Counted from the stretch's first letter, positions 3,547 to 10,752 are shown. The stretch is 32,000 nt of DNA from Candidatus Hermodarchaeota archaeon (GCA_048886185.1 JBHLKY010000006.1:1-32000); one strand, 5' to 3'. A program made the numbers and translations. Notes: generated from the sequence alone by a model not told the origin.

Positions 3547-4653
3547 ATGCCAACCATTTCTTATTTCATCAGTGATCACGGATTTGGACACGCTTCTCGG
3601 AGTGTAGCTATTATCCGCTCTTTATTAGAATGTGATTTAGAGCTTTCAATCAATATTCACACATCAAATCCATTATCTTTTGTAAGAAGGTCATTAATCA
3701 ATATTGATGACCCTCAACGCGTGGATTTTCATAAACAAACCAATGATATAGGTTTTATTGGAGATAAGACAACAGGTAAGATAGATTATCAAAATACAGC
3801 GAAAGAGGTCAATTCGTGGATAAAGGAGTGGTATTCCACATACATTTTTGAAGAATACCAATACCTAAAAGCCAAAGGTGTTGATCTTATTATATCTGAT
3901 ATTGCTCCTCAACCCTTCTTACTGGCAGAAAAGCTAGAAATCCCTAGCATTGCCATTAGTAATTTCACTTGGCTTGATATCTATCAGAACCCTGCTTTTA
4001 AGCTTGACGATTTGAATTCTATCTGGAAAGCCTATCGTGAAGCATCGCTTGGGTTACTGTTACCTTTTAACTTGAATAACACTGTTTTCTGTTCAACGTT
4101 AGAGACGCGTTTGGTCAGCCGTACTCCAACTCGTACCAAGCTCCAGATGCGTAAGAAATTAAGCTTAGAATCAAGTATACCAGTCATTTATGCTGGTACA
4201 GGTTTGTCATTAAGAACTCCCTTCTTAAAGGAATGGCTTGAAAACACTGAGGTAACATTCATCATTGGAGGGCAACATGAACTAAGGCATAATAATGTAA
4301 AAGCCATTCCAACTGATGACTCTGAGGGTCAAGATTACATTGCTTGCAGTGATCTTGCCCTTATAAAACTTGGATACAGCTCTGTTTCAGAAGCAATTCG
4401 TTCTAAAGTTCCAATTATTGGCATAGATTTTCCTGAGACTGCAGAAACAAAGCACATGAAAAAAATCATTGAAGATCTTGGAGTTGGAATATGTATTACA
4501 TCTGAAGAATTTTTTCAAGGAAGATGGCAAAAAGAAATCTCAAATGTATTTGAGATGAGGCGGAATTATTCACATTTACCAGAACGATTTGTTAAAGCTG
4601 GTGAAACACAGATTGCTAATATTATTTTAGACCTTCTCGAAGAAATTATATGA
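3547..4653 (+). CDS. GT-B fold glycosyltransferase-like protein (GT28 / L-arabinokinase N-terminal-domain-like)
   Basis: 368 aa; ISDHGFGHASRS N-terminal motif, DLIISDIAP, KLGYSSVSEA in the C-terminal Rossmann domain. Confidence 0.7.
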   Translation: MPTISYFISDHGFGHASRSVAIIRSLLECDLELSINIHTSNPLSFVRRSLINIDDPQRVDFHKQTNDIGFIGDKTTGKIDYQNTAKEVNSWIKEWYSTYIFEEYQYLKAKGVDLIISDIAPQPFLLAEKLEIPSIAISNFTWLDIYQNPAFKLDDLNSIWKAYREASLGLLLPFNLNNTVFCSTLETRLVSRTPTRTKLQMRKKLSLESSIPVIYAGTGLSLRTPFLKEWLENTEVTFIIGGQHELRHNNVKAIPTDDSEGQDYIACSDLALIKLGYSSVSEAIRSKVPIIGIDFPETAETKHMKKIIEDLGVGICITSEEFFQGRWQKEISNVFEMRRNYSHLPERFVKAGETQIANIILDLLEEII

Positions 4654-4683
4654 TTTTCAAGTATGATTTTCCTATCTAAGAAT

Positions 4684-5253
4684 CTATCTTGAAGTCTTCA
4701 ATAGATCAGCTTTAGTAATTATACCACCAATTTTTCCCTTTTCTGTAACTAAGACTGCTGCTGAAAATTGAAGTAAGCTCGTAATAGCATTTAGTGGAGT
4801 TTTTCGATTTACAACAGGAAAGACATCATCCATGATTTCTTCAACTGGTTTGTCTACTATTTCTTCTAAGGTCTTCCCTCTTAACAATACATCTAACAAA
4901 GTCTCTTCAGTCACACTTCCGATATTTTTTCCATTTGATGAAAAAACTGGGACTTGAGAAATCCCTTCTTTTCTCATTAATTCGAATACGTGTTGAATAG
5001 TGTCATTGGTTTTTACAAATATTACTGGTGACATAATTTCATAAGCTTTCGTCTGATTTTCATGGTCAATTGAAAAAAGGATCTTATGCATTCGTTGTAT
5101 CAGCTTATATGAGGGATTAATAGATCCGGCCTCTATCTTTGCTATCATTGATTGCGAGACCTCCATCCTTTGAGCCAATTCTTCCTGTGTAAGCCCCATG
5201 GATTTACGCATTCGTCTGAATTCATCCAAATCAGGTAATACCGCCCTCGACAA
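4684..5253 (-). CDS. XRE-type HTH plus tandem CBS domain transcriptional regulator (archaeal COG3620-like)
   Basis: 189 aa; GLTQEELAQRMEVSQSMIAKIEAGSINPS HTH, then CBS pair (ISQVPV..GSVTEETLL; GIITKADLL); TTG start. Confidence 0.9.
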   Translation of the reverse strand: MSRAVLPDLDEFRRMRKSMGLTQEELAQRMEVSQSMIAKIEAGSINPSYKLIQRMHKILFSIDHENQTKAYEIMSPVIFVKTNDTIQHVFELMRKEGISQVPVFSSNGKNIGSVTEETLLDVLLRGKTLEEIVDKPVEEIMDDVFPVVNRKTPLNAITSLLQFSAAVLVTEKGKIGGIITKADLLKTSR

Positions 5254-5395
5254 CTCATTTTCCGCCGTACATATAAGTTTAATAAAATTCAGTTTGATGT
5301 TCGGAGAATAAAATTAGTTAAAAAATATTCCCCACATGAATATTCTTAACAGTAACATATGAATTGAGTTTAAAAAAACACATCTTTGATTCGCA

Positions 5396-6451
5396 TTGTC
5401 TCAATATTATTCTATTTTGACAGGTATCCATCCCCTTTCGGAAACTCTAATCAAAAGAATCTTTGATTTCAAGTATGGCCGAGCCTCTTCGCCTGAGCAT
5501 GTAAAAATTGCCTTTGAAAAAGATATTAAAGATTTAATAACCCTATTATCAGATGCGTTTCCAATTGCTATCTCTATTGGAAATCTAGGGTGGTGGGATC
5601 TTTTCAGGCCATTCTCAGAGAAATTACAAGGTCTTTCTCGTGGGGATGGGATCGGAGATCTTCCAGTCGCACGTAATCCATTAACGAACACTTTTTATCG
5701 ACAACCTATTGTTGAGGGAGAAATTTCCCATACTGATTCTGTACTCCTAACAGCAACCCATCCTTTTTTAGATGGTAACATCATTCAAACCAAATTTTTA
5801 CCAATGGAATCTAGACGGAAGGGGTGGAGTTTATGTTTACCAGGGCCTTTTTCTTTCTCCAGAGCTGTTATTTTTAACTCAGAGGGTCAAAAAATCTACA
5901 GAACAAGAAACGATTTTATGAACGCGTTTTCCCAGATCTTGAAACACGAGCTCTCATATCTCTCTAAAGAAGGGTTTTCCCACATTATTATCGATGAAAG
6001 CTCCCTTGCTTGGGAGGAAGTAGATACTGAGACATTATCCCTGTTGGGGGATTTATGGAACCAAATCATCGCTAGTTCATCGTTAAAGATTATTTTTCAT
6101 ACTTACCAAAATCTAAACGAAGAAAAGTTTCAATTACTCTTGGAATCTAAAGCTTGGGCTATTGGTATCGATTGTGTCGCGAATAATCCTCGAGAGTTAG
6201 CTAATTATGATTTTAATGGAAAAAACCTCTTGGCTGGTGTTGTTGATGCCCAAAGTTATCTTAGAGATGCTAATGATAATCTATTAGTTGAAACTGATAA
6301 CGAATTAGTCAAATTAGGAAGTGTATTAGCTAAAACAGAAGCAGAGAATATCATTCTTGCTCCAACGACACGGTTAGAATTTGTCCCACGATCTGTGGCT
6401 GATTTGAAAATACAACAGCTGGGAAAAGCCATAGCCGCATTGCGAGGATAG
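5396..6451 (+). CDS. Cobalamin-independent methionine synthase family, N-terminal-half-like subunit (no Zn ligands)
   Basis: 351 aa; TGIHP, WWDLFRPF, TNTFYRQP, IIIDESSL, AGVVDA and LAPTTRLEFVP match the MetE N-barrel pattern; lacks the HxC and terminal Cys ligands; TTG start; 11 nt gap to next gene. Confidence 0.75.
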   Translation: MSQYYSILTGIHPLSETLIKRIFDFKYGRASSPEHVKIAFEKDIKDLITLLSDAFPIAISIGNLGWWDLFRPFSEKLQGLSRGDGIGDLPVARNPLTNTFYRQPIVEGEISHTDSVLLTATHPFLDGNIIQTKFLPMESRRKGWSLCLPGPFSFSRAVIFNSEGQKIYRTRNDFMNAFSQILKHELSYLSKEGFSHIIIDESSLAWEEVDTETLSLLGDLWNQIIASSSLKIIFHTYQNLNEEKFQLLLESKAWAIGIDCVANNPRELANYDFNGKNLLAGVVDAQSYLRDANDNLLVETDNELVKLGSVLAKTEAENIILAPTTRLEFVPRSVADLKIQQLGKAIAALRG

Positions 6452-6462
6452 GAGGTGGTATA

Positions 6463-7734
6463 GTGATGATTGATCAAGCTTATCCTTTTAATTTATTATT
6501 ACCAACTCATGAAATTGGTTCAATGCGAAAACTCAATGCAACAATACTCGCTTTACAGGGAAGGCCTATCCCCCCTGAACATCTAGAGGAAATCAACTAT
6601 TGGTGGCCAAAATTAGAGTTAGGGGATCCTGATGAGGCAATAACTTTACTTACGAATAAGCCTTCAAGCACCACGAGTGATTTAGAAGAGTGGCAATTGG
6701 AAGTATTAAAGCTAAGACTGCAATTTAATGTCCGCTTCTTAGAAAGTACAGGATTAGATTTCATTTTCAGCGGAGAAGCGTGGAGACGGGAGATGTATGA
6801 GCATGCTGCCCAAGATATTGATGGAATTTATTTAGAAAAAGAACATATCAGATCGTTTGATGATCGTTTCTACAAACCCGGTGTTCGTGTTAAAAACGTG
6901 GCTGTCCGACGGAAAAAACCAATTTATATTGATGAATTGGAGTACACTCAAGCCATCGCTAAAAAGCCACTCAGATTTTGTTTCACAGGTCCTTATACGA
7001 TTTTTAATTGGACTATTAAGCCCTCAAGCGATTCTCAATTCTTATTTGATCTAGTTGATAGTGTTTTCATCCCCGAGATTAAAGAAGCAATCAAAACTGG
7101 TGTTCGCTTTATCACATCTGATGAACCTGCTTACACTACTATTCCTAGCGATAGAGACCTATATACAGAAGCTTATAACAGATTTTTCAAAGGTGTTGGC
7201 AGAATTGCGAAAGAACATGATTGCCTGCTAGGATTTCATACCTGTTTCTCCCATCGTTATGATATTTTATATGAAGACCTTCCAGTCATTCCATGGGATT
7301 TTGTAAGCCTAGAATATGCGAATCGTGATTTTAAAACACTTGGAACAACTCATAGTGAACGACCGTCTTATAAAGAAGGAATAGAAAGGGTGATTCAAGT
7401 ATTTAATGAAGGCAGTCGTTGTAAATTTGCACTAGGTGTGCTAGAAGTTCACGCGGATCACCAATTTACGGAAGAAGAGCAACAGTTGGGAACAGCTTAT
7501 AATCATTTACGCGATCTGATTCGAGATCGGCTTCTTTATCAAACACGGTTAATATATAACGAATTGGGGGAAGAAGGGGCCTTTCTATTACTTTCTGCTC
7601 CAGATTGCGGATTAAGACCTGTTCAAAAAATAAATTATCTGCATACAATGCTTTCTGCTATGGTTGATGGAACTCAAGTAGCACGAAAGCTCCTAGTTGA
7701 AGAGTTGAATTTACCTTCCAAAAGGATTAATTGA
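6463..7734 (+). CDS. metE: Cobalamin-independent methionine synthase, catalytic (C-terminal-half) subunit
   Basis: 423 aa; HEIGS, GEAWRREMYEH, TGPYTIFNW, DEPA; Zn ligands GFHTC (HxC), SLEYA (E) and PDCGLR (C); SD GGAGGTGG; start GTG 6463 or ATG 6466. Confidence 0.85.
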   Translation: MMIDQAYPFNLLLPTHEIGSMRKLNATILALQGRPIPPEHLEEINYWWPKLELGDPDEAITLLTNKPSSTTSDLEEWQLEVLKLRLQFNVRFLESTGLDFIFSGEAWRREMYEHAAQDIDGIYLEKEHIRSFDDRFYKPGVRVKNVAVRRKKPIYIDELEYTQAIAKKPLRFCFTGPYTIFNWTIKPSSDSQFLFDLVDSVFIPEIKEAIKTGVRFITSDEPAYTTIPSDRDLYTEAYNRFFKGVGRIAKEHDCLLGFHTCFSHRYDILYEDLPVIPWDFVSLEYANRDFKTLGTTHSERPSYKEGIERVIQVFNEGSRCKFALGVLEVHADHQFTEEEQQLGTAYNHLRDLIRDRLLYQTRLIYNELGEEGAFLLLSAPDCGLRPVQKINYLHTMLSAMVDGTQVARKLLVEELNLPSKRIN

Positions 7735-7793
7735 AATGAACTGTAGTTGTTTCAAAAATATACGAAGAAAATTAAGAAAGAAGGAATGAAGAA

Positions 7794-8957
7794 ATGGTTT
7801 CTGCTCGTCATTTATTTACCTCTGAATCTGTTACCGAAGGTCATCCAGATAAAATGGCTGACCAAATATCGGATGCAATATTAGACGCAATTTTAGAAAA
7901 TGATCCCCATGCCCATGTAGCATGTGAAACATACTTAACCACCGGAATGGCTTTAATTGGCGGAGAAATTTCTACAACGACATATGTTGATATTCAACAG
8001 GTCGTTCGCGATAAAATTAAAGACATAGGCTACACAGACTCGAGAATGGGTTTTGATTACAATTCTGTTGCGGTGTTAAATGCTATCCACGAACAAAGCA
8101 CAGATATTTCGCAAGGTATCGAACGAATCCGTCCAGAAGAACAGGGTGCTGGAGATCAAGGGATGATGTTTGGATATGCCTGCAAAGAAACTGACTCGCT
8201 AATGCCTTTACCAATTGTACTTGCTCACGGATTAACAAAGCAACTAGCCGTAGCACGAAAAAATAATGAGATTACGTGGCTACGTCCTGATGGAAAATCT
8301 CAAGTAACAGTTGATTATAGTAATGGAAAACCAATTAGTGTATCCTCGGTTGTTATTGCTGCACAACATAGTGAAGAGGTCACCCATGGCGAAATTAAAG
8401 AGGAAATCATTTCAAAAGTAATCATGAAAGTAATTCCTAAACAATACTTGACAGATGAAACAGAGTACTTCATTAATGAAACGGGACGCTTTGTCATAGG
8501 GGGTCCACATGGTGATACTGGATTAACGGGTCGTAAGATCATTGTAGACACATATGGTGGTGTTGGTTCACATGGAGGTGGTTGTTTCTCAGGGAAGGAT
8601 CCCTCTAAAGTAGATCGTTCTGGTTCCTATGTCGCACGCTGGGCAGCAAAAAATGTTGTGGCAGCTGGATTAGCGAATGAATGTGAGATTCAAATTGCCT
8701 ATGCTATTGGTGTCGCCAAACCACTGTGTATCAATCTGGACACTAAAGAAACGAACATTATTCCAGAACTAGATATTTTAGATCTTATCAAGCAGCATTT
8801 TGATTTCCGACCAGGTATAGTGATAGAGCGACTTAAGCTTAAACGACCGATCTACGCGAAAACAGCAGCGTATGGTCATTTTGGCCGTGATGATCCTGAT
8901 TTCACATGGGAAAATACGGATATGGCTCAGATTTTACGTGAAGATGCTGGGATATAA
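7794..8957 (+). CDS. metK: S-adenosylmethionine synthetase, bacterial/eukaryotic type
   Basis: 387 aa; [59 protein letters not shown]. Confidence 0.98.
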
Positions 8958-9108
8958 TTATAGGTTTATCTCTGGGTTATTATTCGCTCCTGTCTCTGAA
9001 ATCATATATGAGAAAAGTCACCTTTGCTTGATTGTTATTCATTAATTTCTTAAAGTTACCATATTATCGAATTTTGATTAATTATAGAATAAATTTTTGG
9101 TGTAAACG

Positions 9109-10041
9109 ATGAGTAGGAGCACGATGGCACAATTGTTTGCGCGTTTACCCATAAATTTGCGATATGTCTTAAGTGAACTATTAATTAGTGCTTATAACTT
9201 CGATGCTCGAATTCTAAAAGATTATATTGATGGGAAATTTGCCACAACGTTCAATTACTCAAATGAATCAATAGCCAAAATAAAGGCCCTCCATGATCGC
9301 CATAAAGGTGAAAGATGTTTTATTCTTGGCAATGGCCCGAGTTTAAATCGAACTAATCTTACTAATCTAAGAAATGAGGTTTCCATTGCCTCCAGTGGAA
9401 TCTTTCACATCTTTAAAGAAAATTCATATAGACCAACATACTATACAGTTGTAGATTTCATTTTTGCTCAACAATATGCTAGAATTATTGACAAGGTTAT
9501 CAAGAATGACAATATTACAGGGATTTTATTGAATTCCCTAAAAAAGTACATTCAAGGAGATCCTAGTACAATATGGGTGAATTTCTTACCAACATGGATA
9601 CATGGCCATTATTCTCAGTACACACAAGAAAACATGGAAACGAATCGAGAAAAGCCTCTACTACCTGAATTTAGCGAGAACCTTGTCCGTGGAATTCATG
9701 ATGCAGGGACAGTCACTTATGTTAATTTACAATTGGCCCTTTACATGGGTTTTAGTGATATCTATTTGATTGGTGTTGATCATAATTATAAAGTCAAAGA
9801 AACAATCGTTACAGAGAATCCAGACATCCTAATAAGTGATTATGAAGTTGATCCCAATCATTTTAGTCCTAATTACACCCCAAAGGGACATAAAATGGCT
9901 GTACCAAGAGTAACTATAATGGAATCAGCCTATTACAAAGCCCGCAAAGTTGCAGAATCGCGGGGTGTTAATATCTATGACGCAACAAAGGGGGGACAAT
10001 TAAAGGTCTACCGAAAAATAGATTATGATTCGTTATTCTGA
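9109..10041 (+). CDS. DUF115 / Maf / GT42-like protein, candidate nonulosonic-acid transferase
   Basis: 310 aa; RCFILGNGPSL and GTVTYVNLQLALYMGFSDIYLIGVDH are the two family motifs; overlaps the convergent neuA by 9 nt. Confidence 0.75.
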   Translation: MSRSTMAQLFARLPINLRYVLSELLISAYNFDARILKDYIDGKFATTFNYSNESIAKIKALHDRHKGERCFILGNGPSLNRTNLTNLRNEVSIASSGIFHIFKENSYRPTYYTVVDFIFAQQYARIIDKVIKNDNITGILLNSLKKYIQGDPSTIWVNFLPTWIHGHYSQYTQENMETNREKPLLPEFSENLVRGIHDAGTVTYVNLQLALYMGFSDIYLIGVDHNYKVKETIVTENPDILISDYEVDPNHFSPNYTPKGHKMAVPRVTIMESAYYKARKVAESRGVNIYDATKGGQLKVYRKIDYDSLF

Positions 10042-10752
10042 TTTTGATCTCTTTTTCATTAATTTTTCAGCTTCATTTAGCCTCTCTTGGGTATCAATAT
10101 CGATTTTATTTTCAGGAATATTATCCAAAATCAGAGGTAATATCCGATCCCCTGTCATTGATCCCATATTAAGGATAATACATGACCGAACTACATCTAT
10201 GTAGCCTGTTTGCCAATAAACGGGAACTAAAACTTGTCGGGGTTGATTATATGCTTCTTTAATTTTAGTTTTTATTATTGGCTCTAAATACCCTTCATTA
10301 CCGATTTTCCACATTTTGTAGGGGTTTTCATCAGGAGTGACTACAGCTCGAACACTATGAGCGTCAGAATTATCTAGTAGAAGTTTGATGGCTTTGTCAA
10401 CAATGGATGTTTCTCGTAGCGGGCTTGTCGGTCGCAGATGGACAACAATTTCGGGACAATATTCCTCCTTCTCTAATAACCACATCAAAGCGTGAGTAAA
10501 GACAGGTAAATCTGGAGTGAGATCTTGAGAAAATATGCTAGGTCGAATGAAGGGGACCTCTGCTCCGTAATTCTTACTAATTTCTGCAATCTCTTTATCA
10601 TCAGTTGAAACGATTATTCTATTGATCAATTTACTTTCTTGTGCAATTTTAATTGAATAATAGATTAGAGGCTTATTCGATAGGAGTGCTATATTTTTCC
10701 TAGGAAGTTTCTTTGAACCTCCTCGTGCAGGAATCAACGCTAAAATATCCAT
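10033..10752 (-). CDS. neuA: Acylneuraminate (CMP-nonulosonate) cytidylyltransferase, copy 1
   Basis: LIPARGGSKKLPRKN, VSTDD, RPTSPLR, IDIDT; ATG 10752 preferred over the track's TTG 10764. Confidence 0.9.
   Translation of the reverse strand: MDILALIPARGGSKKLPRKNIALLSNKPLIYYSIKIAQESKLINRIIVSTDDKEIAEISKNYGAEVPFIRPSIFSQDLTPDLPVFTHALMWLLEKEEYCPEIVVHLRPTSPLRETSIVDKAIKLLLDNSDAHSVRAVVTPDENPYKMWKIGNEGYLEPIIKTKIKEAYNQPRQVLVPVYWQTGYIDVVRSCIILNMGSMTGDRILPLILDNIPENKIDIDTQERLNEAEKLMKKRSKSE

Follow-up and report, generated by a model that had tools for sequence, protein, structure and literature searches.

The DNA analyzed here, hereafter the window, is a 32,000-nucleotide (nt) stretch from a Candidatus Hermodarchaeota archaeon (GCA_048886185.1 JBHLKY010000006.1:1-32000), and the system in question is a candidate transcriptional regulator with a helix-turn-helix (HTH) domain and a pair of cystathionine beta-synthase (CBS) domains, encoded divergently from genes of methionine and S-adenosylmethionine (SAM) synthesis. 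The arrangement proposed in an earlier note on this DNA, in which a regulator gene diverges from metE-metE-metK, was confirmed gene by gene with Pfam and NCBIfam, and the spacer between the regulator gene and the first of the two metE genes, metE-N, is indeed 142 nt long (5254-5395). The genome is that of an Asgard archaeon, and the closest named homologs of the regulator come from Hodarchaeota/Heimdallarchaeota metagenome-assembled genomes. The regulator, a single-copy gene in this genome, has an XRE-type HTH_3 domain (PF01381) at residues 13-59 (Pfam, E 4e-13) and two CBS domains (PF00571, E 7e-18), an N-terminal XRE-type HTH followed by one CBS pair being the COG3620-like architecture of a class of proteins of about 185-200 amino acids (aa). 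Its recognition helix reads SQSMIAKIE and is followed by xGx[IL][NS]PSY; residues S33, Q34, S35, I37, A38, K39, and E41 are invariant in alignment A1, the invariant columns reported here having been taken from alignments A1 and A2.

The four genes and the elements discussed below are collected in Table 1. The metE-N product matches crenarchaeal split-MetE entries of NCBIfam at scores under their cut-offs, and its orthologs are invariably accompanied by metE-C. The metE-C product matches PRK04326 at E 1.4e-37, also under the cut-off (NCBIfam equivalog cut-offs were not reached), and its translation contains the motifs H-T-C, L-E-Y, and P-D-C-G, which we take to correspond to the zinc-ligand positions of Escherichia coli MetE. 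With Meth_synt_1-like and Meth_synt_2 domains on adjacent genes, this is a split, two-gene MetE. The metK product matched all three S-AdoMet_synt domains (PF00438, PF02772, and PF02773), and its gene begins 59 nt downstream of metE-C. Since metE-C is the sole Meth_synt_2 gene of the genome and a Pfam search found no archaeal-type SAM synthetase (PF01941) in it, the locus holds the only recognizable MetE and the only SAM synthetase of this organism.

Table 1. Genes and candidate control elements of the locus, with positions in the window (BRE, transcription factor B recognition element)
Feature	Position	Strand	Basis
Regulator, 189 aa; HTH_3, linker helix, and CBS pair	4684-5253	minus	Pfam
Candidate TATA/BRE of the regulator, AATTTTATTAAAC	5277-5289	minus	archaeal promoter consensus; weakly conserved
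GAATAA, extra half-site-like element	5306-5311	no strand	common to the window and the two relatives closest to it, L016 and L017
Candidate operator, inverted repeat ATATTCCCCACATGAATAT (ATATTCC-CCACA-TGAATAT, 19 bp)	5325-5343	no strand	conservation and rarity
CAGTAA-CATATGAA, read as BRE and TATA box of the split metE operon	5350-5363	plus	conserved block; archaeal consensus
metE-N, MetE N-terminal-domain-like subunit, 351 aa, conserved TTG start	5396-6451	plus	PF08267 (Meth_synt_1), E 1.4e-10
metE-C, catalytic subunit of cobalamin-independent methionine synthase, 423 aa	6463-7734	plus	PF01717 (Meth_synt_2), E 7.7e-18
metK, bacterial/eukaryal-type SAM synthetase	7794-8957	plus	TIGR01034, 587 bits versus cut-off 309

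The candidate operator in the spacer is composed of the half-sites TATTCC (5326-5331) and TGAATA (5337-5342), which lie 11 bp apart centre to centre, and 0.21 matches to its pattern with at most one mismatch are expected per window. The stretch TATTCC-N5-TGAATA at 5326-5342 is one mismatch away from TATTCC-N4/5-GGAATA, the pattern of the wider family described below. In an alignment of the 110 nt before metE-N from eight Asgard loci, four blocks were conserved, namely, ATATTCC, a GAATA-like arm, CAGnAAyATATGAA, and the TTG start. The left arm ATATTCC was invariant in all eight loci, and the GAATA-like arm followed it after five to six bases, being good in six loci and degenerate in two. The CAGnAAyATATGAA block was aligned gap-free to the operator in five of the eight loci, and from its fit to the archaeal consensus we infer that it comprises the BRE and the TATA box of metE. 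The right operator arm is separated by 6 nt from the BRE-like hexamer, and metE transcription is predicted to start near 5385-5388, giving a leader of about 8-10 nt. In the window, L028, and L029 the operator centre precedes the metE-N start by 61.5 nt, while the spacing between operator and regulator start ranges from 52 to 180 nt within the genus of the window.

On the regulator side, the candidate TATA/BRE is centred about 28 nt before the TTG start, so that a leaderless mRNA would be expected. This element contains the first of two copies of AATAAAATT; the second overlaps the GAATAA half-site-like element, which was not seen in the more distant Asgard loci aligned. The two AATAAAATT copies do lie at the positions given by the earlier note (5281-5289 and 5307-5315). 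As a signal, the repeat did not hold up: it occurs 7 times in the window versus 4.3 expected, a count reached by 12 of 100 shuffles, and it is not conserved as a repeat, and it was therefore rejected as an operator. The GAATATTC palindrome is likewise correctly placed (5338-5345), although it is not a stand-alone element and forms the right arm of ATATTCCCCACATGAATAT. The caution that these motifs might be due to chance was thus justified for AATAAAATT and not for GAATATTC, which is half of an operator with an invariant left arm.

The class to which the organism belongs was sampled in 61 genomes, of which 14 had the regulator, and seven loci, with regulator matches on longer contigs and 10 kb of flank fetched, were assessable. 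The divergent arrangement of regulator, metE-N, and metE-C, whose conservation had been suggested as a check, was kept in all seven of these relatives; six of them are congeneric with the window, at 60-71% regulator identity, and the seventh (36%) belongs to another family. Immediately after metE-C, metK was found in four of the seven loci; in others a methylenetetrahydrofolate reductase (MTHFR)-like gene takes this place and metK lies elsewhere. The regulator and metE-N were both present in 12 genomes and both missing from 45, with the regulator alone in 2 and metE-N alone in 2, so that they were jointly present or jointly missing in 57 of the 61, a co-occurrence to be read as a pattern and not as a statistic, given that the class genomes are related and many are incomplete. 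One of the genomes with metE only is represented by a contig end that still shows the operator. Because metK is nearly universal in the genus with or without the regulator and has no operator where it is unlinked, the conserved target there is the split metE. The proposal that the whole metE-metE-metK operon is the target accordingly stood for metE; metK may be transcribed by read-through of the metE transcript or from a promoter of its own, for which AAAATATA, some 30 nt ahead of the ATG, is a candidate.

The case for joining the regulator to the palindrome, and for viewing metE as a target of the regulator and not merely as its neighbor, is strongest in the following observations on relatives. 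In G054, which belongs to another family, the regulator and metE-N are on different contigs; a perfect TATTCCAATAGGAATA precedes metE-N by about 90 nt, immediately ahead of a TATA-like run, and two perfect operators precede the regulator, these being all three perfect sites in the genome. In G050, in which metE-N is present and no regulator was detected, there was no operator before metE-N. Across five relatives, 11 perfect sites were counted, versus 0 for a reversed control pattern, and these comprised 6 at promoters of the regulator, metE, or metF-metK, 4 inside open reading frames (ORFs), and 1 elsewhere. A loose scan of the window's genome, with up to two arm mismatches allowed, gave 118 matches, 16 of them intergenic, with no enrichment, and the intergenic matches were flanked by unrelated genes (acyl-CoA dehydrogenase, peptidase M3, helicase, DUF72, ThiF, and others). 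For these reasons a large regulon in this genome was rejected, and since the genome contains no further convincing site, the regulon appears to be local.

Several other arrangements were seen in the class. In L021, L023, L029, L030, and L031 the position after metE-C, taken by metK in the window, is occupied by an MTHFR-like (metF) gene some 2.3-2.6 kb from the regulator, and in G049 (L024:5447-6403) the regulator is divergent from metF-metK, with no metE. At L022 (G015:C7, family f4), a perfect operator stands about 26 nt before the start of the regulator (9739-10314), which is divergent from cdhC, encoding the acetyl-CoA synthase beta subunit, and two CBS-only proteins follow the regulator; no methionine gene is adjacent, and this regulator may be connected with the Wood-Ljungdahl pathway through its methyl branch. 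In the class sample, 18 of the 21 genomes from the genus had the bacterial/eukaryal-type MetK, with the regulator present or not; it also occurred in families f3 and f5, and the 12 genomes of family f4 and the 2 of f2 yielded none. The sequence GAAGGAATG(A/G)A stands 4-8 nt before the metK start in the window (7772-7793) and, at the same position in L108-L123, in most of the inspected members of the genus, whether or not they have the regulator, with a GGAAGGTT variant in three loci; it is probably a ribosome-binding or leader element unrelated to the operator, despite containing GGAAT.

Beyond the class, a profile scan of one genome per species yielded 80 loci from Asgard archaea, Bathyarchaeia, Aenigmarchaeota, Iainarchaeum, Micrarchaeota, and others. 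Neighboring genes were clustered and then named with Pfam (n = 87 loci). A methionine/SAM gene lay no more than 3 kb from the regulator in 65 loci, mostly as the divergent neighbor, and seven kinds were represented: the archaeal-type SAM synthetase (PF01941; 19 loci); an O-acetylhomoserine sulfhydrylase-like gene, metY, with a metX-like hydrolase behind it (14 loci); a PALP (cysteine-synthase-like) enzyme (9 loci); the bacterial-type metK (9 loci); the split metE (8 loci); the DUF39/HcyBio-CBS homocysteine enzyme of the MJ0100 family (5 loci, in Bathyarchaeia and divergent); and MTHFR-metK (metF-metK; 1 locus). The other 22 loci had no methionine/SAM gene within this distance. In the regulator tree the partners are specific to clades, with at least 16 changes of partner type. 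The archaeal- and bacterial-type SAM synthetases share no sequence relationship, and what the regulator is linked to is thus the pathway and not one gene.

The SQSMIAKIE recognition helix is invariant across the lineages of the family, and 60 of 79 loci had TATTCC-N4/5-GGAATA, with at most two mismatches, in the 160 nt preceding the regulator, compared with 1.6% of 1470 control windows. From centre to centre, the half-sites are separated by 10 bp in the family and 11 bp in the window, a spacing that suits a dimeric HTH protein contacting a single face of the helix. In Bathyarchaeia, regardless of the partner, the operator is centred 35-36 nt before the regulator start codon, a position on the regulator's own core promoter that points to autoregulation there. 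Taken together, the conserved linkage, the changes of partner within one pathway, and the operator at the unlinked metE promoter argue strongly for a regulator dedicated to methionine and SAM synthesis.

Bathyarchaeia also have another palindrome, ATAACGGCGTTAT (variants include ATAACGCACTTAT), which lies next to the TATA-like box of metY/PALP genes in L058, L061, L064, L067, L072-L078, L082, and L095-L105. These loci also encode a 107-134-aa protein with HTH_3 only, and ATAACGGCGTTAT may thus serve as operator for another regulator within that sulfur-amino-acid cluster.

An HTH-CBS homolog (E <= 1e-20) was present in 78 of 151 Asgard genomes. All 24 loci inspected outside the class of the window belonged to another subfamily with the helix SQSLIARIE...DPRLSTL, and the TATTCC operator was not found in any of these 24, whose neighbors were hypF and IF-2B-like genes. 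An Asgard-wide methionine/SAM regulator was rejected on these three counts. Genes of this second Asgard subfamily diverge from the hydrogenase maturation gene hypF. In the one locus checked, L176, the gene that comes next on the same strand is IF-2B/MtnA-like, and L178, L179, and L185 have ORFs of similar size there. Direct repeats TAATATTC(T/C)TA, in three copies 13 nt apart, precede the SQSLIARIE regulator in L177, L181, L182, L183, and L186. The IF-2B family includes enzymes of methionine salvage and AMP metabolism.

The AlphaFold2 model of the regulator shows both modules, the HTH and the CBS pair, with a mean pLDDT of 88. The second CBS domain has the canonical G-I-I-T-K-A-D motif, in which T180 and D183 are invariant, G-h-h-T-x-x-D being the ribose-binding motif of adenosyl-ligand CBS sites. 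In alignments A1 and A2 the first CBS domain lacks the aspartate of this motif, and the pair is therefore likely to have one adenosyl site. Foldseek matched the model to AcuB with bound AMP, ADP, ATP, or Ap4A (the best match), the SAM-bound regulatory domain of human cystathionine beta-synthase, MJ0100 with SAM and methylthioadenosine (MTA), CcpN, and binders of c-di-AMP. A sequence search of solved structures returned generic CBS pairs only and did not separate SAM-binding from nucleotide-binding pairs. It is the pathway context that suggests SAM, S-adenosylhomocysteine (SAH), or MTA as the ligand. The protein-based SAM circuit put forward in the earlier note is thus strongly supported in one half, a protein regulator dedicated to methionine/SAM genes, and in the other half, the sensing of SAM or another adenosyl ligand, keeps the conditional standing that it had there.

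What is observed directly is the pairing of the genes, the conserved operator, and the restriction of the operator to promoters of the regulator and of the pathway. We consider it probable that the HTH_3/CBS-pair protein acts locally, as a sequence-specific transcription factor for methionine/SAM synthesis. It would bind the inverted repeat at 5325-5343 as a dimer, with the half-sites one helical turn apart, and from this site, 6 nt upstream of the BRE/TATA-like block, would modulate the recruitment of transcription factor B (TFB) and TATA-binding protein (TBP) to the metE-N/metE-C promoter, with read-through from this promoter probably extending the effect to metK. The CBS pair would most likely bind an adenosyl end product (SAM, or else SAH or MTA) that alters DNA binding, so that the expression of methionine synthase would follow the supply of SAM. 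As to the sign of the effect, we give SAM-dependent repression slightly better than an even chance and activation relieved by SAM slightly worse than one.

Several points weigh against this reading. We infer the binding of the regulator to 5325-5343 from co-occurrence; the operator in the window is imperfect in both its TGAATA arm and its N5 spacer, and the right arm is degenerate in the relatives L016 and L019. Differently liganded CBS pairs were matched by Foldseek at similar scores, so that the ligand cannot be read from the fold. A methionine/SAM neighbor is missing from 22 of the 87 loci, and among these a cyclase-linked clade has no operator and a TiaS-linked clade mostly has none. No operator was found before ahcY or the Cys/Met pyridoxal-phosphate-enzyme gene (single in the window's genome), nor before the unlinked metK in G005 and G052, and any regulon in this lineage is consequently very small. 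A site just upstream of the BRE suits activators as well as repressors and could hinder TFB; archaeal activators bind just upstream of the BRE, as at the upstream activating sequence (UAS) of HhpR (PMC11705074).

A broader version of the same reading is more tentative, and we place it somewhat below an even chance. The regulator may be the Asgard member of a pan-archaeal family of SAM- (or SAH/MTA-) sensing factors with the operator TATTCC-N4/5-GGAATA, the operator having moved, in the Heimdall-type lineage, from the core promoter of the regulator to a fixed site just upstream of the metE BRE; at that site the protein would either activate a eukaryote-like TBP/TFB promoter under ligand control or repress it from a BRE-proximal position.

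An alternative that retains the operator and changes the ligand is that the CBS pair senses the adenylate energy charge (AMP/ADP/ATP) and gates the ATP-costly synthesis of methionine and SAM. The nucleotide-bound forms of AcuB are the best structural matches and the CBS pair of CcpN is matched as well, CBS pairs bind adenine nucleotides most often, and the invariant Lys181 within the T-K-A-D ribose motif could, speculatively, contact a phosphate. The partner genes, however, all belong to one pathway (SAM synthetase of either type, metE, metY/metX, DUF39, and metF) and not to energy metabolism, and the SAM-bound human domain and the SAM/MTA-bound MJ0100 match about equally well; an energy-charge sensor is in our estimate unlikely. 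Improbable is the view that the palindrome is a promoter element or the site of another factor, with the HTH-CBS gene merely syntenic and regulating something else or only itself. This view draws on the fact that regulator-operator binding rests on co-occurrence, on the Bathyarchaeia site on the regulator's own core promoter, which would mean autoregulation at most, and on the second palindrome and second small HTH protein of some loci. Yet the operator tracks the regulator across the family; G050 has none before metE-N, none accompanies the other Asgard HTH-CBS proteins, whose recognition helix differs, and the perfect sites of G054 stand only at the regulator and at the unlinked metE. That a riboswitch or other RNA leader controls the methionine/SAM genes, with the neighboring regulator irrelevant, is scarcely credible, for although SAM riboswitches are the common bacterial solution, the window gave no Rfam match at gathering score and 4600-9100 none even at E <= 1, the predicted leader is just about 8-10 nt, the metE leader region at 5365-5460 folds no better than shuffles (z = 0.06), and the conserved blocks lie upstream of the TATA-like box, in agreement with the earlier reader, who saw no SAM-riboswitch-like structure.

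Read as a transcription factor of methionine/SAM synthesis, the regulator would resemble MetJ with SAM in function and CcpN in architecture, though it lacks the MetJ fold and gave no family match to CcpN. Like MetJ of E. coli, it is a dedicated protein regulator, encoded divergently from its target operon (metBL for MetJ) and associated with repeated short half-sites (the met boxes); its presumed effector is the end product of the pathway, as SAM is the corepressor of MetJ, and autoregulation is likely in most of its lineages. MetJ, in contrast, is a ribbon-helix-helix protein with no separate sensor domain and is confined to bacteria, whereas the archaeal protein combines an XRE-type HTH with a CBS pair at a TBP/TFB promoter, and it had no MetJ match in Pfam or NCBIfam. 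CcpN of Bacillus subtilis, which represses gapB, pckA, and sr1, shares the N-terminal HTH followed by a CBS pair as adenosyl-ligand sensor; it controls gluconeogenesis and responds to adenine nucleotides, and thus differs in its targets as well as in its domain of life. Its CBS pair (3fv6) matched the regulator model at rank 21 among generic CBS pairs in Foldseek, dozens of which fit the model equally well or better, and no CcpN model was among the NCBIfam matches of the regulator, that is, there was no family-level sequence match. SAM riboswitches, SahR, and SamR perform the same task, SAM/SAH feedback on methionine-cycle genes; the riboswitches are RNAs, of which Rfam found none here, and SahR and SamR are ArsR-type bacterial proteins unrelated to HTH_3-CBS.

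The CBS pairs of two sulfur-amino-acid enzymes, MJ0100 (DUF39-CBS) and human cystathionine beta-synthase (its regulatory domain), have been solved in complex with SAM, and MTA (3kpb and 4uuu). In these the CBS pair regulates an enzyme in cis, whereas here it is fused to a DNA-binding domain, and the similarity of the regulator to MJ0100 is at the generic CBS level (E 2e-5). Among archaeal CBS-domain proteins, HhpR of Pyrococcus yayanosii, a transcriptional activator with four CBS domains, binds a UAS upstream of the TATA box, and HTH-plus-CBS proteins of Thermococcales are listed as uncharacterised (PMC11705074). A site just upstream of the TATA box is also the promoter geometry of the operator in the window. 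HhpR, however, has no HTH and responds to hydrostatic pressure, whereas the present regulator has two CBS domains and an HTH, and it scored 27 bits against the HhpR model (NF053603), far from the cut-off of 520.

Some observations concern other genes. An MJ1255-family glycosyltransferase gene (3547-4653, plus strand) is convergent with the regulator in the window and syntenic in the genus, with identities of 54-72% in L016, L017, L020, and L025. The bacterial-type metK of a Micrarchaeota genome (L085:2444-4768, minus strand) contains an in-frame intein with a LAGLIDADG endonuclease (PF14890 and PF14528). In G055, a member of the class, an 838-aa open frame (C38:64000-66489) has two separate metK matches, which suggests an insertion similar to this intein.

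Full-text literature searches (subscription journals not covered) returned no paper describing this regulator family and no described archaeal regulator of methionine or SAM synthesis, consistent with the earlier impression that such a circuit had not been described. New in this analysis are the Asgard layout, in which an operator with N5 spacing is anchored to the metE promoter and the partners are the split metE and bacterial-type metK; the coupled presence and absence of the regulator and metE, together with the unlinked-regulon test; and the separation of the SQSMIAKIE proteins from the second Asgard HTH-CBS subfamily. SAM is the universal methyl donor, and bacteria regulate its supply with MetJ, MetR, SahR, and at least six classes of riboswitches. 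With a protein, a 19-bp site, and a target promoter all specified, SAM sensing in archaea becomes directly testable without genetics, and if the ligand is SAM, the CBS-HTH combination would constitute a compact protein-based SAM biosensor. The link to the pathway survives the replacement of the SAM synthetase gene by one of an unrelated type, and the family spans Asgard archaea, Bathyarchaeia, Aenigmarchaeota, Iainarchaeota, and Micrarchaeota, so that one result would annotate hundreds of genomes; if the proposal is true, this family would be the first dedicated regulator of methionine and SAM synthesis known in Archaea.

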